From Escherichia coli (GTDB lineage Bacteria > Pseudomonadota > Gammaproteobacteria > Enterobacterales > Enterobacteriaceae): DNA of 64,000 nucleotides. How positions within the stretch are numbered: the stretch's first letter is position 1; every line of letters begins with the position of its first letter. The stretch is taken from assembly GCF_024700885.2 (NCBI RefSeq), contig NZ_CP117014.1; one strand, 5' to 3'. Positions 278 to 40,318 of this stretch are shown piece after piece. A program made the position numbers and the translations under genes. The notes below the pieces were generated by a model. It saw nothing but the letters and a program-made list of their open reading frames with translations. It did not search any database and was not told the DNA's origin.

Positions 278-291
278 TGTTAGAAAACTAA
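278..291 (+). promoter_or_regulatory. operator-like 14-mer, copy 1
   Basis: TGTTAGAAAACTAA; identical to copies at 3783 and 18510; abuts the ref stop codon. Confidence 0.5.
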
Positions 292-866
292 TTTATCGAT
301 TCAATCGCCATCTGATACAACGTCATTTCATCGGCATTGTGCCGTATGAAATCTGCTTTTCCGCCTATTTTTCCATCAGCATGAACAGGGACCAGCCAGG
401 GATATTGTTCTCGGACCTCGGCTGGCGCTGCGTACTGGTGGTGCCATTTACACAAAGGGAGGACATATTTATGCGCGTTCTCTGCCGTTCTCCCGAAGAT
501 ATGGTGCAGGGATACCACTGGGCTATGTTGCCCGTGAATATGGCAGGCAATGCAGGGGAGAGTACCTATAGCGGTCTGTATCCGGCGTTCATCGGCTGTG
601 AGTGATCTGCCTTTCAGGCCGCGTGACGTGCGTGTTTTTTTGGGCGGAGCGGATACAGCTTTATCTTTTCTCCGCTGTTCATATTGCTTTGCTTTTTCAT
701 TTTTCTTTTGCCGATATTCAGGCGATGCGGCCTTTTCTCTCGCTCGCTGCTGCTGGCGTTGAGCTTGTTGAAGGCGCTTTGCCCTTTGTTCCTCTCGCCA
801 GGCCGGGTCAGCCAATTTTTGCATGGCTTTTTGTCTCTGTTTCTCCCAATAACTCTGTTTCTGCAT
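288..866 (-). CDS. ref: Ref-like HNH endonuclease (recombination enhancement function)
   Basis: 192-aa ORF; K/R/Q-rich N-terminal half, then LPCIACH..VSLHHI.GRT..LPLC.WHHQ.AAPAEVRE.YPWLVPVHADG, which I recognise as the HNH core of phage P1 Ref. Confidence 0.85.
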   Translation of the reverse strand: MQKQSYWEKQRQKAMQKLADPAWREEQRAKRLQQAQRQQQRAREKAASPEYRQKKNEKAKQYEQRRKDKAVSAPPKKTRTSRGLKGRSLTADERRIQTAIGTLPCIACHIHGQHSPVVSLHHIFGRTAENAHKYVLPLCKWHHQYAAPAEVREQYPWLVPVHADGKIGGKADFIRHNADEMTLYQMAIESIN

Positions 867-930
867 GATGGCAGTCTCTTACTTTTCAACGATTTTTCTA
901 TGATTGATCAAAACGGTTAGATATTCAAAA

Positions 931-944
931 TTGATTTTCTAACA
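931..944 (-). promoter_or_regulatory. operator-like 14-mer, copy 2
   Basis: Minus strand reads TGTTAGAAAATCAA; lies in the divergent region between ref (minus) and the plus-strand operon starting at 1139. Confidence 0.5.
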
Positions 945-1138
945 CAAAACATTAATATCATCACTGATAAATGTTTGGAGGACATGATGCTTATAGCTTT
1001 AAGTGCGATCCACCAGCCATCTGTGAATGAGATTGGCCTGTTCTATGTGTTGTTTTTCGGGGCGTTGGCGCTACTTGAGCTTGGTATTGAGCTTTTCGCA
1101 GTGCTTATGTTTTGCGTCACGATTTTGGGGAAATTTTG

Positions 1139-1750
1139 ATGGTGAAACGTGTTTTGAAAATTTACATCGCGGGGCCGATGACTGGTTATCCAGATTACAA
1201 CCGTGCTGCGTTTAATGCGAAAGCGAGCGAGCTGATGGCTGAAGGGCATATCGTTCTGAATCCAGCTGTGTTACCTGGTGGCCTTTGTCAGAGTGAATAC
1301 ATGGATATTTGCCTGGCAATGGTGCGTTCTGCTGATGCGATCTACTTGCTCAATCGATGGGAGGAATCGATTGGTGCTCGTGCAGAGCACGCGCTGGCTG
1401 AAAAGCTGGGGCTGACTGTAATTTATGAGTCACCAACCAACATTGAATGCCAGGTTGCTCCGCATATTTACCGGGAACTGGTCAATGCACTGCGTGATAT
1501 CGCTGCTGTATATCACGGCACAGAACAGCTTCGTGAGCGTTTAGCCCATACCATTTCCTATTACCTGTCTTTATCTCATGAGCACAAGCTCCGCCAGAAG
1601 GTAATGATCAAATTTATCATGAGGTTATCGAAATCCCTGGCAAACGCCGATCCAAAGAATCCATTACCGAAAGAGGCAATGAATTACCTGAAGTCCTGCA
1701 ACGTTGTTTCTGAAGATGGCGTTCTTTTGGTTAGAAGGAGTTCTGCGTGA
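1139..1750 (+). CDS. DUF4406 (nucleoside 2-deoxyribosyltransferase-like) protein with extra C-terminal domain
   Basis: Start moved to the internal ATG after GGGG; KIYIAGPMTGYPDYNRAAF...ADAIYLLNRWEESIGARAE matches the DUF4406 signature from memory; C-terminal PHIYRELVN..GTEQLRERL module recurs in the 506-aa protein at 8866. Confidence 0.6.
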   Translation: MVKRVLKIYIAGPMTGYPDYNRAAFNAKASELMAEGHIVLNPAVLPGGLCQSEYMDICLAMVRSADAIYLLNRWEESIGARAEHALAEKLGLTVIYESPTNIECQVAPHIYRELVNALRDIAAVYHGTEQLRERLAHTISYYLSLSHEHKLRQKVMIKFIMRLSKSLANADPKNPLPKEAMNYLKSCNVVSEDGVLLVRRSSA

Positions 1751-2064
1751 GCTGGCGGGGATGGGGAAGGGCAGAAATCATGATACTCCGCCAGTGCGCC
1801 GGAACTATGACGGTCGAGAGTATTGGGAAGCTGATCGGTCGTACCGGTGATGCCGTCAGGACTAAAGCGCGGGAGTTGGGGATCAGCATGATTCTGAAAG
1901 GAGACTTTCATCCGTCAGCCAAATTCCGGCAGAGCGATATAGAACTGGCGCGGCAGCTTCATCAGTGTGGTGTTCCCCGCCGTGAGATCGCGGAAAAACT
2001 CGAAATGCCCCTGGGCATGATTAATCAGTACGTTTATTTCGAAAGGAGAGTACATGAAGTCTGA
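1747..2064 (+). CDS. hypothetical small protein with HTH-like segments
   Basis: 105 aa; GTGA overlap with the upstream stop; segments ESIGKLIGRTGDAVRTKAREL and REIAEKLEMPLGMINQY look helix-turn-helix-like. Confidence 0.4.
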   Translation: MSWRGWGRAEIMILRQCAGTMTVESIGKLIGRTGDAVRTKARELGISMILKGDFHPSAKFRQSDIELARQLHQCGVPRREIAEKLEMPLGMINQYVYFERRVHEV

Positions 2065-2557
2065 AGGTTTAACGCCAGCACAACTGGCAGAGCGTAACGC
2101 TGAGTATGTAACGGAAATTTCCCGACTTGAGAAAGCGTGTGCTGCGCTGGCGGCGGAGAATGCGAGACTGAATGCGATATGTGAGGATCGCCGCACGTTC
2201 ATTATGAATGGCGTGCAGCTTGGCTTTATCAAGGTGCCAACAGTGGAAATAGATCCAGCTCTCGAAACAATTCGTCTCGCCCTATCACCACAAAAAACCA
2301 CTCCTGCGACCGACACTTTCCTGGATGAAGTGAAGACTGAAGCACGCAAGGAGGGCGCTTACTTTGTGGCGAACAGGATGCTGGCTGCTTGGGAAGCTGG
2401 TTTTATTGATGATACTGCGAAGAACGCCGCGGATATTGCCCGGATGATTCTTACCTCTACTGAGTTTATGGCTAATGCGCGGGAAGGCGATTTTGACCGC
2501 TCATTCTCTGATGGCGTTCTCGAAGATATCGCCGAACAGCTTAGAAAAGGAAGGTAA
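2054..2557 (+). CDS. Ead/Ea22-like protein (short paralog)
   Basis: 167 aa; coiled-coil ALAAENARL plus C-terminal ATDTFLDEVKTEARKEG..AAW..GFID module shared with the ORF at 5766. Confidence 0.5.
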   Translation: MKSEGLTPAQLAERNAEYVTEISRLEKACAALAAENARLNAICEDRRTFIMNGVQLGFIKVPTVEIDPALETIRLALSPQKTTPATDTFLDEVKTEARKEGAYFVANRMLAAWEAGFIDDTAKNAADIARMILTSTEFMANAREGDFDRSFSDGVLEDIAEQLRKGR

Positions 2558-2560
2558 ACA

Positions 2561-2809
2561 GTGAGTAATACCGCACGACTACAGCTTGGTTTTTCACCGC
2601 TATCAAAAACCATCGTGTTGGCAAAAATGCGTGACTTAGGGGATGGAACAAAACGTCGTGTTGGCAATGATCGCGGTCGTGATGTAACCAACGAGGCCGC
2701 TCAACTCCTCTGGCATCTGGTCATGGCAGAAGGCGGTGAAATTAATTGGGAGCTGGATGATGGTTCTCGCATGGTATTGAAGGCAGAAAAGCAGGAACCA
2801 CCACAGTGA
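2561..2809 (+). CDS. hypothetical protein
   Basis: 82-aa ORF, GTG start, tightly packed in the plus-strand operon. Confidence 0.35.
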   Translation: MSNTARLQLGFSPLSKTIVLAKMRDLGDGTKRRVGNDRGRDVTNEAAQLLWHLVMAEGGEINWELDDGSRMVLKAEKQEPPQ

Positions 2810-3081
2810 ATATCGACACCACGATAACGCTCGATACGGCCCTAAATACCGGTCTGGCACTTCTTGGTTGGCTTTACATCATGTCCCGTACCTGGCGATG
2901 GCTGGGTTCCATTTTCCTAAAAGAGTGGAAAAAACGGCGCAAACAGGAACTACGCCAGAAGGCATTAGAAGCGTTCTATGACGCATTTGAACTTAGCCGC
3001 ATTGAACCAGGCACAACAGCCAGAATAGCGACAAAAGGCGACCTGATGATAGTGATGTTCAGACAGGAGAAAACCAAATGA
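2806..3081 (+). CDS. hypothetical small membrane protein
   Basis: 91 aa; 4-nt overlap with the upstream gene; hydrophobic segment GLALLGWLYIMS. Confidence 0.35.
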   Translation: MNIDTTITLDTALNTGLALLGWLYIMSRTWRWLGSIFLKEWKKRRKQELRQKALEAFYDAFELSRIEPGTTARIATKGDLMIVMFRQEKTK

Positions 3082-3302
3082 CAGAACAGACGATGACAAA
3101 TCGCGAACTTGTTGATGCCGCGATTGAACTTGCTGGCGATTTTTATTCCATGATGGGGTACACGCATCGCCCAGGCTTCAAATATTGGGAGTCTCCGCAC
3201 CCGCAAGAGCAACGGGTATTTCAAATGGCCTGCCGCGCTTTTGAAGTTATTCGCGGTTCTGATGTGATGGACGCGGTTGCTGATTTGGAGGATGAAGAGT
3301 GA
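3078..3302 (+). CDS. hypothetical acidic protein
   Basis: 74 aa; about 15 D/E versus 6 K/R by my count; ATGA overlap with the upstream gene. Confidence 0.4.
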   Translation: MTEQTMTNRELVDAAIELAGDFYSMMGYTHRPGFKYWESPHPQEQRVFQMACRAFEVIRGSDVMDAVADLEDEE

Positions 3303-3610
3303 ACACAATTAAAGAAATGCCGGTAGAACGTGATGAATATGGCTGCTGGACACATCCGGAGTATGAGAAGTTTTGCGCAGGTCGTGAATATATTTCCACT
3401 GAGGAATTTGACGCCTGGATGAAGGAAAATAATCTTCAGTGGACTATTCGCAGTATGGATGAAGATGATTTTGATCTGGACGCAGCTGGTCCCGATATTG
3501 CCGCCTGGGAACCGGAGCGACCAGAGGGTGAAGGCTGGTTTGTTGGCTCTATTCATGACACTGAAGATGGTCCGGTTTGTATCTGGCTGCGTGAGAAGGT
3601 TGCCGCATGA
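3299..3610 (+). CDS. hypothetical strongly acidic protein
   Basis: 103 aa; about 26 D/E versus 9 K/R by my count; GTGA overlap with the upstream gene. Confidence 0.4.
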   Translation: MNTIKEMPVERDEYGCWTHPEYEKFCAGREYISTEEFDAWMKENNLQWTIRSMDEDDFDLDAAGPDIAAWEPERPEGEGWFVGSIHDTEDGPVCIWLREKVAA

Positions 3611-3782
3611 CCCAGGCTCTGCATGAAGTGAATTTATATAGCCGTATTGATGGTTCTGGCTATAGAAACTAGACACGGGCGCGGTTTTTAGCGGAAATCT
3701 GACGCTAATGCAGGTGAAGGGAGGGCAGCTTAAAGTCTGATCAAATCATTTACGCACTCAAAATCACGTTAGAACATTGATT

Positions 3783-3796
3783 TTAGTTTTCTAACA
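3783..3796 (-). promoter_or_regulatory. operator-like 14-mer, copy 3
   Basis: Minus strand reads TGTTAGAAAACTAA; faces a weaker half CGTTAGAACATTGA at 3767-3780; 43 bp upstream of the ORF at 3839. Confidence 0.5.
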
Positions 3797-3838
3797 TATT
3801 ATTTTACCGATCGGAACAAAACAGAGTCGGTATGCATT

Positions 3839-4834
3839 ATGAGTGCAATAATCACCCCATATGTCGTAAATGAAACTGGTGTGGCTGTCTTTCCTGTAGA
3901 TAAGCCCACCAGCAATTACATCGGCGCAGGACGCCGTTTTCTTATATCCCCATTGCCGCGTGAACAGGCTGAAAACACCCCTGATGGTGTCGTTGACCTG
4001 AATTATTCACTGGTTGCCAACCAGTCACTGGCACCCTTTTTTCAAAGTGAGCGCGTATTTAACGCGTTAGGTGGTGAGGATTCTCTCGTTCACTGGGTTA
4101 GCACCAACATTCACGATTGCCAGGTGCATGATAAGCGCGATTGCAGCCACCAGCTAACCACCCATTTCTATAACGGTTCTGCCGTTCGCCTGTGCTGGAA
4201 GCATGATGCGGAATACATGATGAAGGGATACGGCAAGCTGGAAGACCAACTGTCACTGAATCGCGCCAACTGGATTATGAACTGGGCTGCCAGCGAGTTA
4301 AAACTTCCGCCAGATCGCGATCTGAGCATGGTTGAACTCACCTTTTGGGCCATTCGCCGGAATCTTAAAGACGAACTGCCTGATGAAGCTGGTCGCATTG
4401 CATTTTGTCAGCCAAAAACTGAAATCCCTACCGGCACTCTGAAAGAGTCGGATATTACTTGGGAGCATAGTACCCGCGAGCTGGTGGATATTTCCGCAGA
4501 GCAGATCGTCAATCTGTCCGTCGATGAAGATTCTGGCCTCCTATATATGCGCCGTCCAAAAACCTTACTCGGAAAAAGCCCGGCTTATCTCCGGTTTGTG
4601 GTGTCTCGCCCGTGTGTAGGCTGCGGCGGCAAGGTTAATCACCCATTCATGTACCGCGCCCGCTCGTTAAACGAACACGACCGCTGGACTGTTCCTCTTT
4701 GCGATGACTGCGCCAGAAGCGCAGAAAACGATGTCCGGGCATGGGAAAAAGCACATGGCATACGCCTTTACGTAGCCGCTAACCAGCTTTTCGACTTCGC
4801 CATTGAGCGCGGAGTGATCACGTTCAATAACTGA
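3839..4834 (+). CDS. DUF968-like protein
   Basis: 331 aa; C-terminal Cys cluster CVGCGG...PLCDDCA resembles the prophage DUF968 family (from memory). Confidence 0.45.
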   Translation: MSAIITPYVVNETGVAVFPVDKPTSNYIGAGRRFLISPLPREQAENTPDGVVDLNYSLVANQSLAPFFQSERVFNALGGEDSLVHWVSTNIHDCQVHDKRDCSHQLTTHFYNGSAVRLCWKHDAEYMMKGYGKLEDQLSLNRANWIMNWAASELKLPPDRDLSMVELTFWAIRRNLKDELPDEAGRIAFCQPKTEIPTGTLKESDITWEHSTRELVDISAEQIVNLSVDEDSGLLYMRRPKTLLGKSPAYLRFVVSRPCVGCGGKVNHPFMYRARSLNEHDRWTVPLCDDCARSAENDVRAWEKAHGIRLYVAANQLFDFAIERGVITFNN

Positions 4835-4847
4835 TGGGAGCAATGCA

Positions 4848-5141
4848 ATGAGTCAAGGTAATGGTGACGGAGCTGCAAAGTGCAGAATCTCCACTTGTTT
4901 GATTAATGACAAAAAAATAGAACCGTGCGCGGCGTTGGCACAATCTCTGGAGAAGGATGCTGAATACACGACGCGGAAAGGTCTGCTGAAATACAAAATC
5001 TATAACCATGAATTAATTCATTCACAAGACCTGATCATGCTGCGGTCTGGTGAATTTTCTAAATCGCCTATTCGAGTTTCATTTTGCCCATTCTGTGGTG
5101 AAAGTCTGAAAACGTGGGAAGCGGAGGCAACCAGTGAATAA
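4848..5141 (+). CDS. hypothetical protein with C-terminal CxxC
   Basis: 97-aa ORF; FCPFCGESL near the C-terminus. Confidence 0.35.
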   Translation: MSQGNGDGAAKCRISTCLINDKKIEPCAALAQSLEKDAEYTTRKGLLKYKIYNHELIHSQDLIMLRSGEFSKSPIRVSFCPFCGESLKTWEAEATSE

Positions 5142-5778
5142 CCGCTTTTACATGATGTGCTTGCGTGAAACTGTGGGTAATAACGCCTCATTCCATTGCC
5201 ATAACGGCAATGGTTACAGTTCTGATATCGATCGCGCTCATATTTACACGCTGGAAGAAGCCCAAAAAGCCTGGAATTGTGGGCGAGATATCGATCAGCC
5301 TGTTTGTGCCGATAGTGTGGATGCAATGGCTGTGTGGCACGTTGATTGCCAGTACATCCCTACAGAAAGCCTGATTGAGTCAGATTGCACTGAGTATGTG
5401 GCCTACAAAAAAGGTAGCTGGAACGGCAACGATGTTTACTGGCTTCAACACGGTGGATTGCCAACAGATGACTTCAGTAAAGCGACCATCTTTAGCTTCG
5501 CCAACAAAAACGAACCAGGAATAGTTTGGTTGCCATTTTCCATTGCTGATGCAGCAAAGCGCCGGACGTTCAATATCAATAACTTTAACCGCAGAACAAT
5601 GGTTCAGGGCGCAGGTTTGGTCATGCCTGACTGGTTGAAAGAGCAGAACAGAAGAAAGAAGTCGCGAAGCGGGAAGGTGCGTTGGAATTGTCCGCATTGC
5701 GGAAAAATAACCTGGCAGTACAGCCCATATGATTTTGAAGGCTGTCGTGATTACAACTGTGAAGGATGGCGAGAATGA
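5134..5778 (+). CDS. hypothetical protein with C-terminal zinc-ribbon-like motif
   Basis: 214 aa; WNCPHCGKITW...CRDYNCEGW. Confidence 0.4.
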   Translation: MNNRFYMMCLRETVGNNASFHCHNGNGYSSDIDRAHIYTLEEAQKAWNCGRDIDQPVCADSVDAMAVWHVDCQYIPTESLIESDCTEYVAYKKGSWNGNDVYWLQHGGLPTDDFSKATIFSFANKNEPGIVWLPFSIADAAKRRTFNINNFNRRTMVQGAGLVMPDWLKEQNRRKKSRSGKVRWNCPHCGKITWQYSPYDFEGCRDYNCEGWRE

Positions 5779-6488
5779 CAATTGACTATCAGGTACTGCG
5801 TGAGGCGGCAGAAAAGGCAACACCAGACGAATGGGTCGCATTTATTTCGACGGATACTGGTACTTATGCGGTGCACACGCCCGGTGATGAACGATGTGAA
5901 GACGTTATCAAATGGACCGGCTTTGATGGACAGAAAAATGCAGAGAACAACGCTCGTTATGTTGCCGCGTTCAACCCAAAGGTTGCACTGGAGCTTCTTG
6001 GTGAAATTAAGCGCCTGGAGGACACAAATATTGATGCTATGTGTCGAATTGCAGAGCTTGAGACTAATCTCGCGGCGCTGGCGGCGGAGAATGAACTGGC
6101 TCGTAAGGCAGTTCAGGCATTCTGCGATGTTGTTGGCGACAACACCGAGGTTATCGCTGAGGAGGTTGGGCGAGATGGCGTTCTGGTTATTTTGGAGGCC
6201 ATGAAGGCAACAGGAAATATGCCAGCCACCGATGCTTTTCTGGCTGAAATTCGTGCGGAAGCACGCAACGAGGGAGTTAACTATACCGCCAGCCGTCTTG
6301 CTGCTGCGTTCAATCACGGATTTATCAATAAGTCTTTGCGTGAAGTTTTCGACGTTACACGCATGATTTTGTCAGCGAAAGAAGAGTTGGCTAATGAAGC
6401 GCATCCGATTGATGGCCTGTCTGGTGAATATGCGGAGAAATCCCTTGAAGAATGGGCGGAACAGATTCGCAAAGGAGCTGACAAGTGA
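5766..6488 (+). CDS. Ead/Ea22-like protein
   Basis: 240 aa; N-terminal YQVLREAAEKAT..W module shared with 7423; central ALAAENELA; C-terminal ATDAFLAEIRAEARNEG module shared with 2054. Confidence 0.55.
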   Translation: MARMTIDYQVLREAAEKATPDEWVAFISTDTGTYAVHTPGDERCEDVIKWTGFDGQKNAENNARYVAAFNPKVALELLGEIKRLEDTNIDAMCRIAELETNLAALAAENELARKAVQAFCDVVGDNTEVIAEEVGRDGVLVILEAMKATGNMPATDAFLAEIRAEARNEGVNYTASRLAAAFNHGFINKSLREVFDVTRMILSAKEELANEAHPIDGLSGEYAEKSLEEWAEQIRKGADK

Positions 6489-6895
6489 AGAAGATGATTT
6501 TTATCGCGGCATTGTTGGTGAATATCCAACAAGTGCATGCTTCAGCAGCTATTGTAGCCTCTACCGCCGCGACTACGGCTGCTGTAGCTGCTGCGAACTC
6601 TGCGAATATCGCAAACCAACAGGCACAGCGTGCTGCTAATGCATCAGCCAGCGTTCACTCAATCACCATTAAGAGCAGTAAGCAAAATCTGGGATTCATA
6701 ACGTGCGGCACGCGTTCTAATGAAGCTGTAGGTTCACTTGGATGTACGGTATATGGGGGTAGTGAGAATAGAGAAATTCCATGGAAAACGTGGCCCGGAT
6801 ACGTTCTTGGCTCGAAGCTCCCGGCCAGTTATGAAGTAAACGCCGTATCGTTTGATCACTATAACGGCGTGGCAACGGTCTATTTTGCATATTGA
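6485..6895 (+). CDS. small secreted protein
   Basis: 136 aa; signal-peptide-like MKKMIFIAALLVNIQQVHA followed by an Ala/Thr-rich stretch. Confidence 0.45.
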   Translation: MKKMIFIAALLVNIQQVHASAAIVASTAATTAAVAAANSANIANQQAQRAANASASVHSITIKSSKQNLGFITCGTRSNEAVGSLGCTVYGGSENREIPWKTWPGYVLGSKLPASYEVNAVSFDHYNGVATVYFAY

Positions 6896-6902
6896 GGCCC
6901 GC

Positions 6903-7436
6903 ATGAAATTCTCCAAATTTTCTGAGTTGGTGAATCGTATTTTGTTGAATCGTATTTTGTCCAACAACCACAGCCATCGTCGCGATATGGATGTAACGAT
7001 CGTTGTTCATTCGCCTGGCAGCATTGGTTCAACACCCTCAGTTGAGGTTCAGTCAATTCACGCTGGTTTTGATTGGGATTCCGGGAAAGTGCTGATTTTC
7101 CCAGCACAGCCACTGACCACTCTAACACCAGAACAGATTACTGATATTACTGATAGTGTGCGCAAAGGTCAGTCCTGGCACGCATATCAGGAATACAAGA
7201 AGCATAAAGAGCAGTTGGAAAAATTATCGATTGAACTTGATACCGCAAAACAGCGCATTGCAGAGCTGGAGAGCAATCGCGCGGCGCTGGCGGCGGAGCA
7301 TGGTATTCAGATTGCAATAAATGAACTGCTTGCTCTGGCCCCGCGTCTGGATAAACGAGCGGTGGATGCACTCTCTGTGGCTGTGGAGCACCTGTGTAAA
7401 CTGATTAAGAAGGAGGCAGTCAGTGAGCAAAATTAA
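6903..7436 (+). CDS. hypothetical coiled-coil protein
   Basis: Start moved to MKFSKF; contains ELESNRAALAAEHG, the same junction motif as the Ea22-like paralogs. Confidence 0.4.
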   Translation: MKFSKFSELVNRILLNRILSNNHSHRRDMDVTIVVHSPGSIGSTPSVEVQSIHAGFDWDSGKVLIFPAQPLTTLTPEQITDITDSVRKGQSWHAYQEYKKHKEQLEKLSIELDTAKQRIAELESNRAALAAEHGIQIAINELLALAPRLDKRAVDALSVAVEHLCKLIKKEAVSEQN

Positions 7437-8178
7437 TTACCAGGCACTGCGTGAGGCGGCAGAGAAAGCAACGTGGGGAGACTGGGACTCATATAAACCA
7501 CACCGTGGCGCACGTGGTTATAAGGTCCGACTAAGTGGTCAGGCCATTGCGCAACACGTTCTGAAAAACAACGCTGAATTTATTGCTGCCTTTAATCCAA
7601 AGGTTGCTTTGGCATTACTGGATGAACTGGAAAGAAACCAGCAATACATCAAACGCCGCGACCAGAAGAACGAGGATATTGCTCTTACGGTTGGGAAGCT
7701 GAGAGTTGAGCTTGAGGAAGTAAAACAACACGCTGAAGAATTATCCGAAACCAAGGCTGTTCGTAACCAATGGCGGCCAGATATTTGCCCAATAACCGGA
7801 CGTGCATTTTTCATGTGGATTGAGCATCCAACATTGGGAAATGTGCCGACATATGGTGGCCCATTAGATAGTTACACCATTCCAACAAAGGACGGTGACG
7901 GTGAGTTTTCATGTGAGCGTTACGATCATGATTTTGGCGGTTGGGTAGAAAGCGAATGTCTTGGGTTATATCTGATTGATGATAGAGAACAATGCAGGGT
8001 CTACGAACTGGAGGAGCGCGTTAAGGAACTGGATGCTCGGGAAATATCGCTCCCGGAACGTAGCAGCATGCTTCATCGAACAGATTTTCACGATGATTAC
8101 CAAACGGTAATGGCATACAAAGTTTCTGAAGTCATCGATGCAATCCGCGCTACTGGCATTCGCATCAAAGGAGAGTGA
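7423..8178 (+). CDS. Ead/Ea22-like protein (N-terminal module)
   Basis: 251 aa; INYQALREAAEKATWGDW..NAEFIAAFNPKVALALLDELE parallels the ORF at 5766. Confidence 0.55.
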   Translation: MSKINYQALREAAEKATWGDWDSYKPHRGARGYKVRLSGQAIAQHVLKNNAEFIAAFNPKVALALLDELERNQQYIKRRDQKNEDIALTVGKLRVELEEVKQHAEELSETKAVRNQWRPDICPITGRAFFMWIEHPTLGNVPTYGGPLDSYTIPTKDGDGEFSCERYDHDFGGWVESECLGLYLIDDREQCRVYELEERVKELDAREISLPERSSMLHRTDFHDDYQTVMAYKVSEVIDAIRATGIRIKGE

Positions 8179-8179
8179 G

Positions 8180-8590
8180 ATGAACGCTATAACCAAAGAA
8201 CGTATCAAATTATTCATTAAAAATCCGCTTGATAACGGACTTACTCGTGGCGAACAAATGGAACTGGCACGAATTGCTCTGGCATCGCTGGAAGCAGAGG
8301 CAGTTATGTTCTGTATATCAGGACAAAATGTAGATTCAGAAGAACATGTATCAACCAGCAAAGCGGTTGTTGATGCCTGGGTTGAAGAATGGAATCAGGT
8401 TGACGGAAGTCCTGGCGAACCACTGTACAAAACTATGCCACTCTACTATCACGCTGCCTTGCCAGCGCCGGTAGTGCCGGATGAAATGTATTGGCAGGAT
8501 GCGCCAGTTGAAGGCAGCAGCAAAGCGGCTGCATACGCTACAGGCTGGAACGCCTGCCGCGCCGCTATGCTTCATGGGAAAGGAGAGTGA
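8180..8590 (+). CDS. hypothetical protein, paralogous N-terminus to 8866
   Basis: Start at ATG after GGAGAG; ITKERIKLFIKNPLDNGLTRGEQMELARIALASLEA is nearly identical to the first 40 aa of the 506-aa ORF. Confidence 0.5.
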   Translation: MNAITKERIKLFIKNPLDNGLTRGEQMELARIALASLEAEAVMFCISGQNVDSEEHVSTSKAVVDAWVEEWNQVDGSPGEPLYKTMPLYYHAALPAPVVPDEMYWQDAPVEGSSKAAAYATGWNACRAAMLHGKGE

Positions 8591-8591
8591 T

Positions 8592-8855
8592 ATGGCAACT
8601 TTAACAAAAAAAGAACGGGCATGGTTGAACGAATTACAGGACGTTCTTGATCGCTGTCCATCACCGAAAAAAATTGGTTTTTACACCATTGGCGATAAAA
8701 GCATTTACCTGTATGACCTGCGCCGCATGGATGAAATCATGGAGACTCTTGATAATCGTTCGTCGATGGATTGGTGTGTTGCTGTTCATGATATGAATGC
8801 AGGGTTTGATGAAAAGATTTTGTTCCCCTCATCAGTTGAAAGCACTGCGGGTTAA
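8592..8855 (+). CDS. hypothetical protein
   Basis: 87 aa from the ATG after GGAGAG; packed in the operon. Confidence 0.4.
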   Translation: MATLTKKERAWLNELQDVLDRCPSPKKIGFYTIGDKSIYLYDLRRMDEIMETLDNRSSMDWCVAVHDMNAGFDEKILFPSSVESTAG

Positions 8856-8865
8856 GGAGTAACAC

Positions 8866-10386
8866 ATGACCACTATTACCAAAGAACGTATTGAATTGTT
8901 CATTAAAAATCCGCTTGAAAACGGGCTTACCCGTGGTGAACAAATGGAACTGGCACGGATTGCGCTGGCATCGCTGGAAGCAGATCCAGTTAAACGAGTT
9001 AACTCAGATCAGATGCGCCGAGTCTGCTTAGAAGCTAATCGCCATTTAGATAAATATGACGCGATGGCGAAAGAGGTAAATAAGTTGCTTGGACGCATCG
9101 CCCCGCCAGCGCCGGTAGTGCCGGAAGAAGCAACTCCGGAAAACGTAGAAATGCTCTCTGGCTATGTTTCCACGTACAAATTAACCGATAGCGAGCGCGA
9201 TATTGCTGCCGAAATATGGAACGCCTGCCGCACCGCCATGCTTCAGTCCGGAAACTTTCGGGAAAGCAAGAATTCGTCAACCAATAATTTTCGGGAAATC
9301 GCGGAAACGTCAACCAACTATCCGGTAATTCCTAGTGAGGTGTTGTCAGCAATCCTGAAGTTTGCCAGAGTTCGTGCCGATTTCGATGATTTTGACGGTG
9401 ACAGGCGAGGTATCGGTGATTGTCTGGATGAGGCCGAGCAAGAGCTTATCGTTACCATTAACAAATATGCCAGTCAGTTGGCAGCAGAACCGATAGCGAC
9501 TAATGACGTTCGAGAGCAAACAGCCGTTCCGCCAATACAGGCTGATGTCGCGCAAGCAATTGAAAATCTCAAGCAGAAGTTAGTGGAATGCAATCGCTAT
9601 AACTACTGCGCAGATGCAGTTAAAGGCGTAGAGGATGCCAGCCGCGTCTTGGCACTCCAAAATCAAAATATGTCAGCACCGGTAACGCCGGAGGCCATTG
9701 AAAACGCAATTGAATATATCCGCAGTATCGCTTTTCACATCGATGAAGACGATTACCACGGCAAGCATATTGCGTATTTCATGCGACAAGCATTGGCCTG
9801 GCTGGAAGGGCATTCATGCAGCGACGACAGGCTGGGTAAGGCCGACAATCAACCCGCATCTGGTAACCAGTCTGCCGAATCCAATCGCGGTAATGAGTGG
9901 ACCGGCAATCCTGATATTGATAACGCCATCATCATGCTCGACCGCATAGATACGGCGGAAAGTTGCGATGATGACCGTATTGAGGCCGTTAAGGCTGTGT
10001 TGCGTAGACTGGCAGGCAACTATCCGGATATTCCGGATAGTTCGGTGCCAGCGCCAGGAAAGGGCGTCACCGGTGAACGTATCCGCATTAAGCCGCATGT
10101 TTATCGCGAACTGGTTAACCGTCTCCACGATACAGCGATCAAGTGTGCTGGCACCCAGCAATTACGAGAAAGAATTAGCCGTGTTTTGGGCGACGTTATT
10201 ACACCAGATCATCATAAACAAGCCGAGAAAAGTGGCCTGGAAAGGTGTCGCCTTGAGGCGGCATTAAACATTAAGCCGGGGCATACGCTTGGCATTATTG
10301 ATGCACTATTGGTTCATAAGATGGCCAGGGCTTTATTGCCGCTGGTGGCTGAAAAGCATGAGGTGGACCATGCCAACGAAAGCTGA
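8866..10386 (+). CDS. multi-module hypothetical protein
   Basis: 506 aa; N-terminus paralogous to 8180; C-terminal PHVYRELVNRLHD..GTQQLRERI module paralogous to the tail of the DUF4406 protein. Confidence 0.5.
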   Translation: MTTITKERIELFIKNPLENGLTRGEQMELARIALASLEADPVKRVNSDQMRRVCLEANRHLDKYDAMAKEVNKLLGRIAPPAPVVPEEATPENVEMLSGYVSTYKLTDSERDIAAEIWNACRTAMLQSGNFRESKNSSTNNFREIAETSTNYPVIPSEVLSAILKFARVRADFDDFDGDRRGIGDCLDEAEQELIVTINKYASQLAAEPIATNDVREQTAVPPIQADVAQAIENLKQKLVECNRYNYCADAVKGVEDASRVLALQNQNMSAPVTPEAIENAIEYIRSIAFHIDEDDYHGKHIAYFMRQALAWLEGHSCSDDRLGKADNQPASGNQSAESNRGNEWTGNPDIDNAIIMLDRIDTAESCDDDRIEAVKAVLRRLAGNYPDIPDSSVPAPGKGVTGERIRIKPHVYRELVNRLHDTAIKCAGTQQLRERISRVLGDVITPDHHKQAEKSGLERCRLEAALNIKPGHTLGIIDALLVHKMARALLPLVAEKHEVDHANES

Positions 10387-10654
10387 ATTACAGGTGCGCG
10401 TAGATGAGCTTGAAAAAGAGAACGCGAGCCTCAAAAAAATGCTGTCGCGGGCGGAAAGGGAATTATCAGGCAAATTATTGCCAGAAGAACTGCCACCAGC
10501 AGATATACCTGATCGAGTGTCCTGGTGGATGAAGTATTTCCGTGCACCGTGGGAGGCGTTTTGGTGCTACGACCATCGCAGATGGTGTGATGAGCTTGAT
10601 AGCAGTTTCCCCTATTTTGCAGAAGGGAACTCTTGCCCTGAATGTAGGCGTTAA
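10370..10654 (+). CDS. coiled-coil/CxxC small protein (paralog A)
   Basis: Start at ATG after GAGGTGG; ends W..ELD.SFPYFAEGNSCPECRR. Confidence 0.45.
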   Translation: MPTKAELQVRVDELEKENASLKKMLSRAERELSGKLLPEELPPADIPDRVSWWMKYFRAPWEAFWCYDHRRWCDELDSSFPYFAEGNSCPECRR

Positions 10655-10959
10655 TGATGACCGGCGAGCTTTATTTTAAAATGGCACGGGAGCGGCGTGT
10701 GCATCTGGATCGGATATTTCATCTCCAGAAGAGAGTAGAAGAACTGGAACGTCGTCTGAACTGTTATCCTGTTGATATGGTGTCTGCAATACCGCCGATT
10801 CCAATAGAAATGCAGATCCGCCTATGGATGGAAGAATATGGAATGCCGTGGGAGATATTTTTCTGCTTCGACCATAAACAGTGGGTAGATGAGCTGGATA
10901 ATAGTTTCCCATATTTCACAGAGAACACATGCCCAGTATGCAGGAAGAACGGAATATGA
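10654..10959 (+). CDS. coiled-coil/CxxC small protein (paralog B)
   Basis: 101 aa; ends WVDELDNSFPYFTENTCPVCRKNG; paralog of the preceding gene. Confidence 0.45.
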   Translation: MMTGELYFKMARERRVHLDRIFHLQKRVEELERRLNCYPVDMVSAIPPIPIEMQIRLWMEEYGMPWEIFFCFDHKQWVDELDNSFPYFTENTCPVCRKNGI

Positions 10960-11480
10960 CAAAATTTGGAAAGCTGGAAGCTCATTTGCTAACTCGCAAC
11001 TACCGCCATGATATACACCCATATAGACAGTGGATCGATGAAAGCGAAGGAGTAGTTACATTCCCTCTCTACAGGTTTGATGGGATGTTGGCTGGGTATC
11101 AGACATATAGACCAGGTGCACCTAAGCAGCATAGCAATCCGAAGATGGCCCGGTATTTCACGCGATCACACGGCAGACAGTTACTTTGGGGAACCTATCT
11201 TCCTTTAAAAGATGGCCCAATATGGATAACTGAGTCTATTTTTAAGAGCGCAGCTGTACACAACGCGGGCGGCAATTCGTGGGCGCTGTTAGGTTCAACT
11301 TTCTCCGCAGGATTACGCCGTCAACTTGCGATGCTGCCGTATGACTTTCGCGTAATAGGTGACAATGATGCGGCTGGTGAATCACTTGTGAAGTCTTTCG
11401 GAAAAGGTTTTGTGGCCCCGGATCTTGACGAGCTACAACCACATGAAGTGTCTCATTTGATTTTTAGCCATAGCCAATAA
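10956..11480 (+). CDS. small Toprim-domain protein
   Basis: ATGA overlap start; WITESIFKS (Toprim Glu) and VIGDNDAAGE (DxD) motifs. Confidence 0.5.
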   Translation: MTKFGKLEAHLLTRNYRHDIHPYRQWIDESEGVVTFPLYRFDGMLAGYQTYRPGAPKQHSNPKMARYFTRSHGRQLLWGTYLPLKDGPIWITESIFKSAAVHNAGGNSWALLGSTFSAGLRRQLAMLPYDFRVIGDNDAAGESLVKSFGKGFVAPDLDELQPHEVSHLIFSHSQ

Positions 11481-11688: not shown

Positions 11689-11708
11689 TACTGTATAAAT
11701 GAACAGTA
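11689..11708. promoter_or_regulatory. LexA (SOS) box
   Basis: TACTGTATAAATGAACAGTA fits CTG-N10-CAG; 20 bp upstream of humD. Confidence 0.75.
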
Positions 11709-28755: not shown

Positions 28756-29250
28756 TTAATCAAGACAAACATACTCCGTGATAGCTTTTATGGCTTCAGC
28801 GGCACTGCGCGCCTCAAAGCAGTAGTAACCGGCTTCTGTGAGGCGAGTCATCCAGACGAGTTGTTCGGGAGTCAGGCGATTTCTCCCATGTTTCATCTCA
28901 ATGCGCATTCCGTGGTATCCCCCACAAGCAAGGTCTATAGAAAGATCGGGATATCCCTTCTTTTGGCCCTCTGCCACCATTTTTATTGCCGTCCTTATGC
29001 CTCGCAGGCCACCGTTTGGAGTGGCGTGAGTATGCTCATACACATAACGCATATTGCGATACATCCAGTCCAGGACGCGAACCTGCTCGTAATGCTCATG
29101 GTTCCTTTTGATTAGATCTGGGTTTTTCTCCAGTTCTCTAAGAGCTGCGGCATGTGGGGATGTTTCAGAATATTCACTGCGACGCCTTCTCTTTCGCGCT
29201 ATTTTTCTAACACACCCATTGATAGTAAATATGCGAAATAATAACAACAA
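28756..29250 (-). CDS. VRR-NUC domain nuclease
   Basis: YPDLSIDLACGGYHGMRIEMKHG (D...ExK) followed by LTPEQ..W; start uncertain because operator copy 11 lies inside the annotated 5' end. Confidence 0.6.
   Translation of the reverse strand: MLLLFRIFTINGCVRKIARKRRRRSEYSETSPHAAALRELEKNPDLIKRNHEHYEQVRVLDWMYRNMRYVYEHTHATPNGGLRGIRTAIKMVAEGQKKGYPDLSIDLACGGYHGMRIEMKHGRNRLTPEQLVWMTRLTEAGYYCFEARSAAEAIKAITEYVCLD
29199..29212 (-). promoter_or_regulatory. operator-like 14-mer, copy 11
   Basis: Minus strand reads TGTTAGAAAAATAG. Confidence 0.4.
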
Positions 29251-29386
29251 CGTTAGATTTGTAAAACAAGAGAGATACTACTCAAGGATGGTCTATATGC
29301 AACAGGTCGGATTTGCTTTTAGAGTAAAGAGTGACCTTAATCAACAAGGAGGGTAAATCGCATGGCATTTACCCAACCTGTTATTT

Positions 29387-29647
29387 TTAAAGGGTTATTT
29401 TATCCTGTTCGGATAATTCTTTGATTGTCTTGTCGATTGCGATCAACCAACCTTCATAGGTTAAATCATCAACAAGTTCTACCAACTTATCATCGGTGTG
29501 AGGAAAGTATATCCAGCTCCAGTTCGCAGGGTTTTCTGCTTTTCGCAGCGTAAAAACCTTCTTGTATCGGTGGAACTCAAGGATATACCCCTTCGATATG
29601 GAATATTCCTTTAGGTCTTCGACCGTAAACCTACGATTCTTTCGCAT
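29387..29647 (-). CDS. hypothetical protein
   Basis: 86-aa ORF, 2 nt after the upstream stop. Confidence 0.4.
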   Translation of the reverse strand: MRKNRRFTVEDLKEYSISKGYILEFHRYKKVFTLRKAENPANWSWIYFPHTDDKLVELVDDLTYEGWLIAIDKTIKELSEQDKITL

Positions 29648-37626: not shown

Positions 37627-37827
37627 TCAAGTCACGATCCAATCATTACCGACTATATCAGCCGTCGATAAATCAACTTCCCGGATCTGGAGTCCATTAA
37701 TACAAAACCATCCGGTAGTAGAGTAATTATCAGGCCAGGCCCATACACCAACACTCCATGCTTTACGGCGGCACACTTCAGCCTGTCCTTCCCTGATTTT
37801 TTTTACCGCCTGCATGATGTCCATCAC
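37627..37827 (-). CDS. 66-aa protein, DUF2829-like
   Basis: MQAVKKIREGQAEVCRRKAW...STADIVGNDWIVT mirrors the N- and C-terminal DUF2829 motifs in a shortened form. Confidence 0.4.
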   Translation of the reverse strand: MMDIMQAVKKIREGQAEVCRRKAWSVGVWAWPDNYSTTGWFCINGLQIREVDLSTADIVGNDWIVT

Positions 37828-38531
37828 TCACCTCCCCAACCGATCACCTGGAATTGCCCCATTTTGGGGTGATACCAGCGTTTTCCTCGGTGTTCAGCCT
37901 CCGACATCATCCGGTTAAAAGCATTCATGAAGGGAGATAAGGCCACGATGGAACGACGCGACAATACCCCCTCTGGAGTCAAAAACTCATGTGTATCGGT
38001 GGGAATCCGGTAAGCGTTGACAAGGTTTCGGCATTTGGCTTCAGTCAGGCCGCATTTCGCCGCCAGCTGGCGGTAGCCAATGTAGCCTTCCGGAATATTG
38101 CCTTTCTTTATTTGCTCGACGGTTTCAGCGACCTGGCTAACCTTTGACTCAACAGCATGAATCAGCTTTTGCTGCTGAACTGCATTCGCAGCCATTGCAG
38201 CGATCATCTCTATTTCGGTCAACGGCTGGCGTACTTGTTCTTCCAGTTCGCGCCAGCGGTCCACCAGCCGGGCGGTGAATTCGGGAGAGAGCTGCGCGAC
38301 GACAATGATGCTGTCTCGTTTGCCTTGCTCGCCTTCGAAGACGTAAGCCTCAACGCCACGACGCAATCCTAAGTTATTGATTTTTTCGAAAACAGCCATT
38401 GGCGGTTTTCGGATAATGCTTCGAGCAACCATACGCTCAATACTACGTTTAACGTCAGAGTGTTGGCTTCCCACCAGCTCCGCAATCTCAATGCTGGTCA
38501 TTGATAGTTTTTCGAGAATGCAGATACCCAT
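37824..38531 (-). CDS. Rha-family regulatory protein (antirepressor position)
   Basis: 235 aa; MTSIEIAELVGSQHSDVKRSIERM is the typical Rha N-terminus; follows an icd-sized ORF as ant does in P1 immI. Confidence 0.6.
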   Translation of the reverse strand: MGICILEKLSMTSIEIAELVGSQHSDVKRSIERMVARSIIRKPPMAVFEKINNLGLRRGVEAYVFEGEQGKRDSIIVVAQLSPEFTARLVDRWRELEEQVRQPLTEIEMIAAMAANAVQQQKLIHAVESKVSQVAETVEQIKKGNIPEGYIGYRQLAAKCGLTEAKCRNLVNAYRIPTDTHEFLTPEGVLSRRSIVALSPFMNAFNRMMSEAEHRGKRWYHPKMGQFQVIGWGGE

Positions 38532-38755
38532 CAGTGTGCCTCCGCAATTCCGGGATTGGTAATATTGCGATACCAGGGATTAGTGTTTGGTTGTGGGGAA
38601 GTAGAGAAACGACCAGTAAGAACACCATGCTGATCAGGGATCAGAGAACGGGCTTCTTTTTCGGTTGCGGCAATTGCGAAGTGATCGCAGCGTTTTTGCA
38701 GGGAGTGGAAACGCCAGATGAATTCTGGACGTGAGCAAGGATTGGCATTAACCAT
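38531..38755 (-). CDS. Icd-position small protein
   Basis: 74 aa (P1 Icd is 73 aa); 1-nt ATGA overlap with the downstream Rha gene; positional call only. Confidence 0.35.
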   Translation of the reverse strand: MVNANPCSRPEFIWRFHSLQKRCDHFAIAATEKEARSLIPDQHGVLTGRFSTSPQPNTNPWYRNITNPGIAEAH

Positions 38756-38759: not shown

Positions 38760-38990
38760 ACGGCCTCACTAACAGGTTTAACAACCTGCCACCCGCTGTC
38801 AAACAGGTGGCAGGACGTGACAGGGTTGACAGACTGGCGTTAGTGAAACCAGCAGGCCGAAGCCTCCCCATCACGCCCCACCATAATTCGGGCGTAACGC
38901 GGTTTACGGACACAAAAATACCGCAATATCGGAAATCTGCGGTTGTCCGCACTAACATTCAGGCTGTCAAACCCGGTCGCAGAATTTGCT
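38760..38990 (-). ncRNA. candidate c4-like antisense RNA region
   Basis: Non-coding leader between operator copy 12 and the icd-position ORF. The minus strand carries GTTTGACAGC twice (38972-38963, 38804-38795) flanking the complementary CTGTCAAC (38832-38825), plus hairpin CCTGCCACC/GGTGGCAGG. Confidence 0.25.
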
Positions 38991-39100
38991 ACGACGGCAT
39001 GAATATAAGCCTGAAAACATGGAAGATCAACTAAAAATTTCAGCAATGGATGACTTCAGTCGATGATGCAGATCATACATTCCGTTTTAGAAACAGCAAA

Positions 39101-39114
39101 TTAATTTTCTAACA
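39101..39114 (-). promoter_or_regulatory. operator-like 14-mer, copy 12
   Basis: Minus strand reads TGTTAGAAAATTAA; faces the weak half TTTTAGAAACAGCA. Confidence 0.5.
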
Positions 39115-39168
39115 TAAATAATCGGCCGAGCATTTTCCGATCATTGGGATGTTTTGTAGACACACAGG

Positions 39169-40131
39169 TCATCCCCTAAATCCCGCAGGGATTGACCAAT
39201 CCTCACGGTCAAATTCAGACCGATAGCCACGCTGTTTCATCAGGTCAAAGGCTTCACCAATGGTTGCACACCCCTGGGAGCCAGAATAATCCATTGAGAA
39301 ATCTAGGGCACTGGATTGTTTAGGCTTATTCACTGCGGTAGCGGCACTACGTATCCATGCAAATTTTTTTGCCAGCTTTTCAGCGGTACGATACAGAGCC
39401 TGCCGTTTTGCGTGCCCCTCGTCTGAACGACGCTTTGCAGCTCTCGCTTTTGCCGCCGCCAGGCAGTGGTTGGTATGTTCTTCCCTGATTACTGGTTTTT
39501 TATCCAGTACCCCGTTATCCGTTTGAGAACTATCTGCAGGTGAAGCCTTTGGCTGAACCGCGCATGATCTTTCTCTTCTTTTGGCTATAGAGTGACTCTT
39601 ATTTTCTATTGGCTGTTCATTTTGAACATGGGGGGACTTGTTCAATTTGAACAGGGGGTTCCCAGTTTCAAAAAAATAACGAACCTTTGAAATCAACTGC
39701 TTAACCAGTTTTGTGGCGTTGGCAAATTTGATGCCCTGCTTACCCCCTATCTCCATTGCTACATGAATGAAGTGGAGAAATTGTGTCGTAAACCGATATA
39801 CGTTACACACCTGGGCATTGTTATTCGCTACCTGATGTTGCTTAACAAGCATTCCGCACTTCGTCGCTTCAGCAAATGCCCGGCGCACAGTAGAAATACT
39901 GCGTCCTGTAATCTCGGACATATCAGCATATGAGCGACGGATCATGTATTCATCGGTAGACCCTGCCAGGTTGGCGAACTCGGCAATAATGGCGCTATGT
40001 GAAGGGGAAAGAAGACCGCTATGACGAGCAAAAAAACTCAACTGATGACCTTTGATTTTTTTGTGGTATTCAGTGTTGTTTTTATACTCAGAAGTGTTGA
40101 AAGTTACTGAAACTGAATTTAAAATACTCAC
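39169..40131 (-). CDS. wHTH protein, possible RepL-like lytic replication initiator
   Basis: 320 aa, GTG start; MSEITGRSISTVRRAFAEATKCGMLVK winged-helix segment; operator copy 13 upstream, as for C1-controlled kilA-repL in P1; functional call is weak. Confidence 0.35.
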   Translation of the reverse strand: MSILNSVSVTFNTSEYKNNTEYHKKIKGHQLSFFARHSGLLSPSHSAIIAEFANLAGSTDEYMIRRSYADMSEITGRSISTVRRAFAEATKCGMLVKQHQVANNNAQVCNVYRFTTQFLHFIHVAMEIGGKQGIKFANATKLVKQLISKVRYFFETGNPLFKLNKSPHVQNEQPIENKSHSIAKRRERSCAVQPKASPADSSQTDNGVLDKKPVIREEHTNHCLAAAKARAAKRRSDEGHAKRQALYRTAEKLAKKFAWIRSAATAVNKPKQSSALDFSMDYSGSQGCATIGEAFDLMKQRGYRSEFDREDWSIPAGFRG

Positions 40132-40194
40132 CAGATAGTTCCGTGAAAAAATCTATCTACCGTATAAATCTATGGCAGTGGATTTATACACCCA

Positions 40195-40226
40195 AAAAGC
40201 CGCTTCTCAGCGGCTTTTGCTTTTTT
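40195..40226 (-). terminator. stem-loop terminator after the pro-position gene
   Basis: AAAAGCCGC-ttctca-GCGGCTTTT with T-runs on both strands. Confidence 0.6.
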
Positions 40227-40304
40227 GGCAGTCGCTACCGGAGCAGTGACCGCGATCCTACTCGATCCCATCCACCAGGATCAACAGTGTATATAAATAC
40301 ACTA

Positions 40305-40318
40305 TGTTAGAAATTTAA
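40305..40318 (+). promoter_or_regulatory. operator-like 14-mer, copy 13
   Basis: TGTTAGAAATTTAA, preceded by the palindrome AGTGTATATAAATACACT (40286-40303). Confidence 0.45.

Follow-up and report, generated by a model that had tools for sequence, protein, structure and literature searches.

The stretch of DNA considered here, called the window throughout, is a sequence of 64,000 nucleotides (nt) from an Escherichia coli assembly (GCF_024700885.2, contig NZ_CP117014.1), and it carries part of an element related to Escherichia phage D6. Bases 1-20000 match D6 (MF356679 / NC_050154) at 96% identity over 55% of their length, with shorter stretches matching P1 and P7, and bases 20001-44000 are 98% identical to many non-mobilizable E. 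coli plasmids of ~90-97 kb; taken together, these matches identify the window, at the level of sequence, as a D6-like phage-plasmid of the P1 supercluster. It contains ref and an early operon, the recombinase gene dre followed by rox, c1 and pacB, so that the repressor gene lies beside the recombinase and its lox-type site, and further along the late activator gene lpa, five tRNA genes, an immI-like operon, repL and a late-gene block (portal, tail and baseplate; 40319-64000). Copies of a short asymmetric repeat are dispersed among these genes, and they are very probably the operators of the element's C1-family prophage repressor, a predicted protein of 345 amino acids (aa) encoded at 18538-19575. 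Position 1 of D6 corresponds to window position 18312, the two sequences are 96-98% identical where they can be aligned, and each site of the window has a D6 counterpart at the corresponding coordinate, with one core change at the repL site (TATGTTAGCAATTTAA).

A dispersed 16-bp repeat

A preliminary description of the window had listed thirteen copies of an asymmetric 14-bp motif, and all thirteen coordinates do hold it, with differing fidelity. The 14-mer TGTTAGAAAWNTAA occurs exactly eight times (278, 3783, 17100, 18510, 26907, 28156, 39101 and 40305), against 0.00 expected from 100 dinucleotide shuffles, and twelve times when one mismatch is allowed (0.21 expected), the extra four copies being those at 931, 22943, 26751 and 29199. 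The thirteenth copy, at 18423 (TTTTAGAAAACCAA), needs two mismatches, and its core TTAGAAAA is invariant in diverged relatives. Three copies (278, 3783 and 18510) are identical, as had been noticed, and read TGTTAGAAAACTAA. Alignment of the 13 sites revealed two further constrained positions on the 5' side, a T in 10 of 13 followed by A or G in all of them; therefore, the unit is a 16-mer and not a 14-mer, TRTGTTAGAAAWNTAA, which by the information content of the 13 sites can be written as T-R-TGTTAGAAA-W-N-TAA. A weight matrix built from these sites, on which they score 18-26 bits, found one further weak site in the window (29253-29268, 15.9 bits), which brings the total to 14.

Once a 300-bp tandem repeat had been removed, TGTTAGAAA was the most over-represented 9-mer of the window (n=11 against 0.74 expected, P=5e-10), and it is also the commonest 9-mer in the intergenic DNA of D6. 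Two k-mers that were stronger in the first scan, CTAGATCGTA and AGCTCAGTAG, were rejected as non-regulatory, since all their copies come from the tandem repeat inside the gene at 53131-55740; this gene encodes 869 aa, contains about five of the 300-bp repeats and is the source of all other strongly over-represented k-mers of that scan. As separate observations, the Chi sequence GCTGGTGG is present 36 times in window positions 1-64000 (7.6 expected) with a strand bias of 26 minus to 10 plus, and the intergenic DNA of D6 (loci L001 and L003) contains 12 copies of AAATCACA and 6 of TGAGGGCAA, which may be iterons or partition sites.

The predicted operators and the features directly connected with them are the following, in window coordinates:

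276-291, plus strand: predicted operator AATGTTAGAAAACTAA, 24.5 bits, over the ref stop codon (288-290), at the head of a leftward operon that runs off the window
913-946, both strands: predicted bivalent operator in the ref/early-operon divergent region; strong site 931-946 (minus, TGTGTTAGAAAATCAA, 23.8 bits), weak site 913-928 (plus, ACGGTTAGATATTCAA, 5.0 bits), gap 2 bp
3765-3798, both strands: predicted bivalent operator; strong site 3783-3798 (minus, 26.2 bits), weak site 3765-3780 (plus, 3.8 bits)
17098-17113, plus strand: predicted operator TGTGTTAGAAATTTAA, 24.9 bits, 1 nt past the dre stop codon
18423-18438, minus strand: distal, weaker predicted c1 operator, 19.1 bits, whose TTTTCTAA block is invariant in the c1-upstream alignment
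18465-18493, plus strand: candidate c1 promoter Pc1, -35 TTTACT, 17-bp spacer, -10 TAAATT, both hexamers in invariant alignment blocks
18508-18523, plus strand: proximal predicted c1 operator TATGTTAGAAAACTAA, 26.2 bits, 14 nt before the c1 ATG, at ~+8 to +23 of candidate Pc1
18538-19575, plus strand: c1, candidate repressor gene (345 aa), distant homologue of P1 C1
22941-22974, both strands: predicted bivalent operator upstream of lpa; strong site 22941-22956 (plus, 22.7 bits), weak site 22959-22974 (minus, 5.6 bits)
26751-26766, minus strand: downstream predicted operator of the tRNA-island leader, 18.1 bits
26907-26922, minus strand: predicted operator TGTGTTAGAAATCTAA, 25.0 bits, directly past the pmgS-like stop codon
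28156-28171, minus strand: predicted operator TATGTTAGAAAAATAA, 24.8 bits, 25 nt before the pmgS-like ATG (28131)
29199-29268, minus strand: two predicted operators before the VRR-NUC (pmgM-like) gene, 29199-29214 (21.7 bits, ~+17 to +32) and 29253-29268 (15.9 bits, over the -35)
38803-39008, minus strand: C4 antisense RNA (38803-38888; Rfam, 68.8 bits) and its a1b1 target (38956-39008; Rfam c4-a1b1, 55.2 bits)
39083-39116, both strands: predicted operator of the immI-like operon; strong site 39101-39116 (minus, 26.0 bits), weak partner 39083-39098 (plus, 0.0 bits)
40303-40318, plus strand: predicted operator TATGTTAGAAATTTAA, 24.9 bits, between the pro stop codon (40332) and repL (ATG 40131, minus strand)

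The placement of the sites was assessed on complete D6, whose GenBank annotation served as an independently made gene map. This genome has 19 sites at 14.9 bits or more, and 17 of them fall in the 10.2% that is intergenic (binomial P=2e-15); the intergenic DNA alone holds 16 matches, against 0.10 in composition-matched simulations. The earlier statement that nearly all copies are intergenic is thus borne out, and the similar density inside coding DNA that had been named as counting against a regulon is not what D6 contains. In the late-gene block of the window, the weight-matrix scan gave no match above 9.9 bits. The regulon sketched in the preliminary description stands as far as the window sites go and is incomplete beyond them, as the window covers only part of the element and D6 has about five more sites outside its range, at 54204, 64114/64132, 72198 and 72929; of these, one precedes orf52, a pair precedes the hrdC-dmt operon, one falls between mat and simB, and the last is within simB. 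The other D6 site annotated as coding corresponds to window 29199 and falls within the first 17 codons of a probably over-extended TTG start. The VRR-NUC gene in question (window 28756-29250, minus strand; D6 orf12, 10918-11412) is probably annotated from a start too far upstream, because those 17 codons contain the operator and follow a good promoter, the Pfam domain begins only at residue 45, and PGAP (the NCBI Prokaryotic Genome Annotation Pipeline) starts the gene further downstream in relatives.

C1 as the predicted binding protein

In BLASTP, the alignment of the 345-aa protein with P1 C1 (283 aa) runs from end to end (21% identity over 268 aa, E=1e-8). Both are members of phrog_1678, and D6 gene 1, to which window 18538-19575 corresponds, is annotated 'prophage repressor', similar to P1 c1. 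Against the NCBIfam model phage_rep_C1 (NF041318), it scores 25.9 bits, compared with a curated cutoff of 500, so that it does not qualify as a P1 C1 equivalog, and searches of Pfam and the PDB with C1 returned no domain and no solved relative. Judged by its sequence, the window C1 is a distant member of the family and not the same protein as P1 C1, which fits a different DNA specificity. In PLSDB, 148 plasmids encode a C1 of this type, spanning 25-100% identity.

The repeat is retained where the repressor is retained. It is kept at orthologous positions in elements of E. marmotae and S. dysenteriae and in a fragment on S. Typhi pK91, with C1 proteins 80%, 69.5% and 68% identical to that of the window, respectively. 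The regions upstream of c1 and pmgS have mostly diverged, and the repeat is one of the few blocks that stay invariant in their alignments. The pK91 segment (locus L007, NZ_CP029965, 18557-21038) comprises dre to c1 of the D6 type with two operators, next to IS26 in a conjugative IncFIB plasmid, and is a captured fragment and not a whole phage-plasmid. Moreover, the motif changes together with the repressor: elements with a C1 68-100% identical to that of the window keep TGTTAGAAA, P1 (21%) has ATTGCTCTAAT and the Citrobacter/Leclercia type (~29%) has CCTTAGAAT, each motif being confined to its own C1 clade in the cross-table and all three having a TTAGA core in common. The D6 motif is absent from the Citrobacter and Leclercia plasmids examined (NZ_CP099368 and NZ_CP042508), whose C1 proteins are ~29-30% identical to the window C1 and 49% to each other. 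These plasmids have the same order of recombinase, c1 and terminase and a TTAGA-core motif dispersed over the same relative positions, but, unlike the D6 type, the motif is CCTTAGAWT(N5)GT. The most frequent intergenic k-mer of these plasmids is CCTTAGAA, and the full motif has 10 copies in the Citrobacter locus against 1.19 expected. The third motif directly follows the stop codons of the recombinase and pmgS-like genes, occurs in the ref divergent region and precedes rdgC-dam, c1 and the VRR-NUC gene; its coordinates are:

Citrobacter plasmid NZ_CP099368 (L011), CCTTAGAWT(N5)GT: 5778, 13546, 13617, 18377, 19663, 26027, 29264, 39792
Leclercia plasmid NZ_CP042508 (L008), CCTTAGAWT(N5)GT: 8084, 9470, 24317

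Repeats of GTGATCAC in Leclercia were considered as alternative operators and rejected, as they are few and partly located in coding sequence. A search for the perfect palindromic pair in species-representative genomes gave a single unrelated match in Flavobacteriaceae and was uninformative.

At four strong sites (931, 3783, 22941 and 39101), a weaker, inverted partner lies at a distance of exactly 2 bp from the TAA tail. The scores of these partners are reached by ~0.1% of background positions, and in L006 (E. marmotae) and L009 the partners are full-strength; both halves of the 913-946 site, for instance, are perfect in L006 (3543/3561). Bivalent as well as monovalent sites are thus present, as they are in P1.

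The sites themselves, their statistics, placement and conservation, and their co-variation with the repressor clade are observed directly. Because of this enrichment and placement, the positional correspondence with P1, the syntenic C1 homologue, the conservation, the co-variation across three clades and the bivalent sites, it is highly likely that the repeats function as operators of the C1-family repressor.

It is unlikely, in comparison, that the motif is bound by some other protein, either another regulator of the element (for instance a small early-operon DNA-binding protein or the antirepressor of Rha type) or a factor of the host, and that the target of C1 lies elsewhere. This alternative draws on the fact that the identity of the binding protein is deduced from sequence, on the other predicted DNA-binding proteins encoded by D6-like early operons, and on the lack of a recognisable Pfam DNA-binding domain and of a solved relative for C1. 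However, compared one by one, the sites occupy the positions of C1 operators proven in P1, the motif switches together with the C1 clade in three clades, whereas the site of a host factor would not be expected to change sequence among related plasmids of the same hosts, and no other dispersed over-represented motif fit for C1 was found in the window or in the intergenic DNA of D6. A common early-promoter element, that is, a -10/discriminator sequence or the recognition sequence of a modified RNA polymerase, is less likely still. Every site does lie near predicted promoters, and several directly follow a -10-like hexamer (TAAAAT before 28156, and TAATAT before 3783 when read in the orientation of the motif), but orientation is mixed and the distance to the best promoter candidates ranges from ~-70 to +32, which a core promoter element would not tolerate; inverted pairs at a fixed 2-bp gap suit a DNA-binding protein and not a promoter element, and the repressor gene, whose expression is needed in the lysogen, itself has a site in front of it. 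That the repeats are a chance or compositional feature of intergenic DNA, or functionless remnants of duplication, can be dismissed: this DNA is somewhat AT-richer (43.6% GC) and so is the motif, but the intergenic excess over composition-matched simulations, flanks that are unrelated between sites and a motif conserved while its flanks diverge speak against it.

Several points weigh against the assignment of the repeats to C1. The identity of 21% to P1 C1, far below the equivalog cutoff, means that the transfer of function would rest on distant homology and synteny. The D6 site at 72929 sits within simB. Seven operators point in the same direction as the regulated gene and five in the opposite one, a mixture also seen in P1. 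Their positions relative to predicted promoters are heterogeneous, so either the mode of repression varies from site to site or the promoter calls are wrong. The site at 26907 is 19-34 nt upstream of the predicted -35 and not on it. Furthermore, no counterpart of Coi or Lxc, which tune C1 activity in P1 (PMC8546580), was detected. Between rox (18297-18328) and c1 (18144-18537 of the window being examined) there is no open reading frame (ORF) longer than 33 aa and hence no coi-like ORF, unlike in P1 immC. An 86-aa ORF at 29387-29647 (minus strand) occupies the lxc position, directly after a ulx-like gene and darB; it was rejected as an Lxc homologue, having no similarity to P1 Lxc and belonging to a different PHROG (phrog_6844 vs phrog_2160), and it could be an Lxc analogue or unrelated. 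Lxc was not found in a D6-like plasmid either (PMC6799933). Therefore, the switch cannot work exactly as in P1: the D6 type either does without Coi and Lxc inputs or has unrecognised analogues of them.

Genes under predicted control

If the repeats are C1 operators, C1 in the plasmid-prophage state would bind the asymmetric 16-bp sequence, either at single sites or at pairs that stand tail to tail with 2 bp between them. Binding would take place on sigma-70 promoters or beside them and would block transcription of early and lytic functions. We infer C1 as the binding protein, repression upon binding and the positions of the promoters from sequence. The repressed set would include lpa, repL, pmgS and the tRNA island, ref together with the early operon divergent from it, the genes for the DUF968 and VRR-NUC proteins, the dut operon that follows dre, and both operons of the C4/icd/antirepressor type, whereas the late structural genes, which have no sites, would be controlled indirectly through the late activator lpa. 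Binding before its own gene would make C1 autoregulatory. A strict sigma-70 consensus scan found few promoters at the sites, and a relaxed scan gave plausible but heterogeneous ones. Only Pc1 and the putative promoters of the tRNA island and the VRR-NUC gene are well supported, Pc1 best of all; at the other sites of the relaxed scan, the operator overlaps candidate -35, spacer or -10 elements.

The site at 276-291 had been assigned to the ref/early divergent region, but it overlaps the ref stop codon and heads a leftward operon instead. In D6, this operon comprises orf86, orf85, an isrK-like RNA, a second C4 RNA, icd and a Rha/KilA-type antirepressor gene (ant), and from this gene order the unit controlled by the site is likely to be a second immI-like operon extending off the window. 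Just past the left edge of the window, D6 75233-75443 (minus strand; L003 25233-25443) carries an isrK-family RNA (59.1 bits) directly upstream of the second C4 RNA (76 bits). The pair at 3765-3798 precedes the DUF968 (pdcB-like) gene at 3839 by 41 nt. The site at 17098-17113 is upstream of a conserved leftward operon (orf117-like, orf116-like, dut and further genes), and it is kept in L006, L007 and L009, with the third-type motif at the same spot in Citrobacter and Leclercia. The genes after dre had been taken for a cargo operon, a label that does not fit, as this D6-lineage operon, dut included, is present in all D6-type relatives examined.

Upstream of c1, the proximal site predicts autoregulation from its position just downstream of candidate Pc1, and the distal site is ~70 bp upstream relative to this promoter. 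The lpa site at 22941-22974 is 77-110 nt upstream of lpa (ATG 22864, minus strand). The -22 box of P1 late promoters, ACAAGTGACT, is not enriched in the window (5 copies vs 3.4 expected), and the late-promoter element read by the Lpa homologue of the window is probably a different one.

Five tRNA genes at 24393-25687, all on the minus strand, lie downstream of the sites at 26907 and 26751, the former being just upstream of a sigma-70-like promoter (TTGATT, 17 bp, TAGAAT; 26888-26860) that faces them. The earlier proposal that this RNA/tRNA island is under prophage control agrees with this arrangement, which mirrors the position of P1 Oban. The tRNA genes are those for Met, Ser(UGA), Thr, Tyr and Arg; the 87-nt Ser(UGA) gene (24898-24984) falls just below the Rfam threshold as tRNA-Sec, and there is a sub-threshold STnc100-like match at 24651-24788. 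Two further repeats were observed, GGTAAGAGCATTT, found three times in the island (24793 and 25359 on the plus strand, 25421 on the minus strand), and TAAGAGCA, with 10 copies in the window against ~2 expected.

The site at 28156-28171 comes after a terminator hairpin (28238-28213) and the TAAAAT hexamer. The two VRR-NUC sites flank a sigma-70-like promoter (TTTACA, 16 bp, TATTAT; 29265-29238). The site at 39101-39116 precedes the a1b1 element by 108 nt and the C4 RNA by 228 nt, and these two are followed by icd (38531-38755) and a Rha-type antirepressor gene (37824-38531); this is the arrangement of a P1-type immI, with the C4 RNA and a1b1 upstream of icd and the Rha-domain antirepressor and the operator at the head of the operon.

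Relation to the P1 C1 system

The dispersed C1 operators of the P1/P7 immC system are Op2, Op21, Op51, Op53, Op68, Op72, Op82-88, Op94 and Op99. In P1, the operator is an asymmetric 17-bp sequence with 22 dispersed copies, to which C1 binds, and the genes controlled by C1 include repL and lpa (PMC8546580). With the P1 operators taken as the curated protein_bind features of RefSeq NC_005856, the P1-like distribution claimed earlier for the window is confirmed, the sites being at the positions of experimentally defined P1 C1 operators:

P1 Oref, upstream of ref: counterpart 913-946
P1 Omat, 2628-2645, over the ref stop codon (ref ends at 2637): counterpart 276-291, over the ref stop codon 288-290
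P1 Oc1a-e, upstream of c1: counterparts 18423 and 18508
P1 Olpa, 71-87 nt before lpa: counterpart 22941-22956, 77-92 nt before lpa
P1 Obanab, before the tRNA/tciA/ban operon: counterparts 26907 and 26751, upstream of five same-strand tRNA genes
P1 OpmgRa/b, before pmgR-pmgS: counterpart 28156-28171
P1 O26 and Oppp, around pmgL-pmgM: counterparts 29199 and 29253, before the VRR-NUC gene
P1 Oc4, 115 nt before the a1 target and 203 nt before C4: counterpart 39101-39116, at 108 and 228 nt
P1 OrepL, upstream of kilA-repL: counterpart 40303-40318
P1 Odmt, before the uhr-hrdC-dmt operon: counterpart D6 64114/64132

In the P1 RefSeq record (L004), Omat at 2628-2645 is annotated on the minus strand, and the sequence in consensus orientation, ATGCACTAATAAATATA, is on the plus strand.

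The two consensus sequences, TRTGTTAGAAAWNTAA for the D6 type and ATTGCTCTAATAAATTT for P1, do not cross-match: the P1 consensus has no match in the window at up to three mismatches, its 13-mer core none at up to one mismatch in any D6-type locus, and P1 contains no D6-type site above 13.2 bits. The difference from the P1 operator that had been pointed out is therefore real, and the restriction of the likeness to a TTAGA core agrees with the alignment of the two operator profiles, which is best when antiparallel on the TTAGA/TCTAA core (4.33, against 3.37 for the best parallel alignment). The third clade, together with this profile comparison, favours the antiparallel alignment; orientation relative to the genes was tried as a guide and dropped, as it does not discriminate.

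The operator sequence would thus set the immC immunity specificity, with only the TTAGA core common to P1. In a broader reading, towards which we lean only slightly, the C1 repressors of the P1 supercluster would all read a TTAGA core and the clade-specific flanks would set specificity (P1 ATTAGAGCAAT, D6 type TGTTAGAAAA, Citrobacter/Leclercia CCTTAGAAT), the D6 type being further distinguished by the lack of Coi and Lxc, another pair geometry and two C1-controlled antirepressor operons. None of the three D6 GenBank records, including the immC region AY753669, has annotated operator features, and no description of D6 operators was found in the full-text open-access literature, a search that left out both primary D6 papers. 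The D6 type would represent a second operator specificity of the P1 C1 system and the Citrobacter type a third, although an earlier description is possible.

D6-like phage-plasmids occur widely among E. coli, Salmonella and Shigella, and a D6-type c1 region (C1 68% identical) is located on the conjugative Salmonella Typhi plasmid pK91 together with qnrS1, blaTEM-1 and sul2. A known operator would allow the prediction of immunity groups, that is, of which elements exclude each other, and of the genes that are silent in the carrier state, such as the tRNA island, dut, ref and the two antirepressor modules. It would also add a second repressor/operator pair that is probably orthogonal to P1 C1 and that comes from the same phage as the Dre/rox recombinase. 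The result is unsurprising in kind, as a heteroimmune relative of P1 must have different operators; if the reading of a common core with variable flanks is true, the sequence of any P1-like phage-plasmid could reveal both its immunity group and the regulon that is repressed.

Compared as systems, P1 and the D6 type share a repressor gene next to a recombinase and a lox-type site and ~20 asymmetric sites of 16-17 bp at the heads of early and lytic operons, and the targets common to both, often with similar distances to the site, are ref, lpa, c4/icd/ant, repL, the tRNA operon, pmgR/S, the pmgM region, the dmt operon and c1. However, the P1 operators Ossb, Orlf and OpmgT are absent here, whereas the D6 lineage has sites with no P1 counterpart before the DUF968 gene, after dre before the dut operon and before orf52, as well as the second immI-like operon as an additional target. 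The geometry of the pairs also differs: in the annotated bivalent operators of P1 (Oban and Oc1), the 17-mers overlap by 6 bp with their cores directed inward (CTAA ... TTAG), whereas the D6-type pairs are arranged tail to tail with a 2-bp gap (TTAG ... CTAA).

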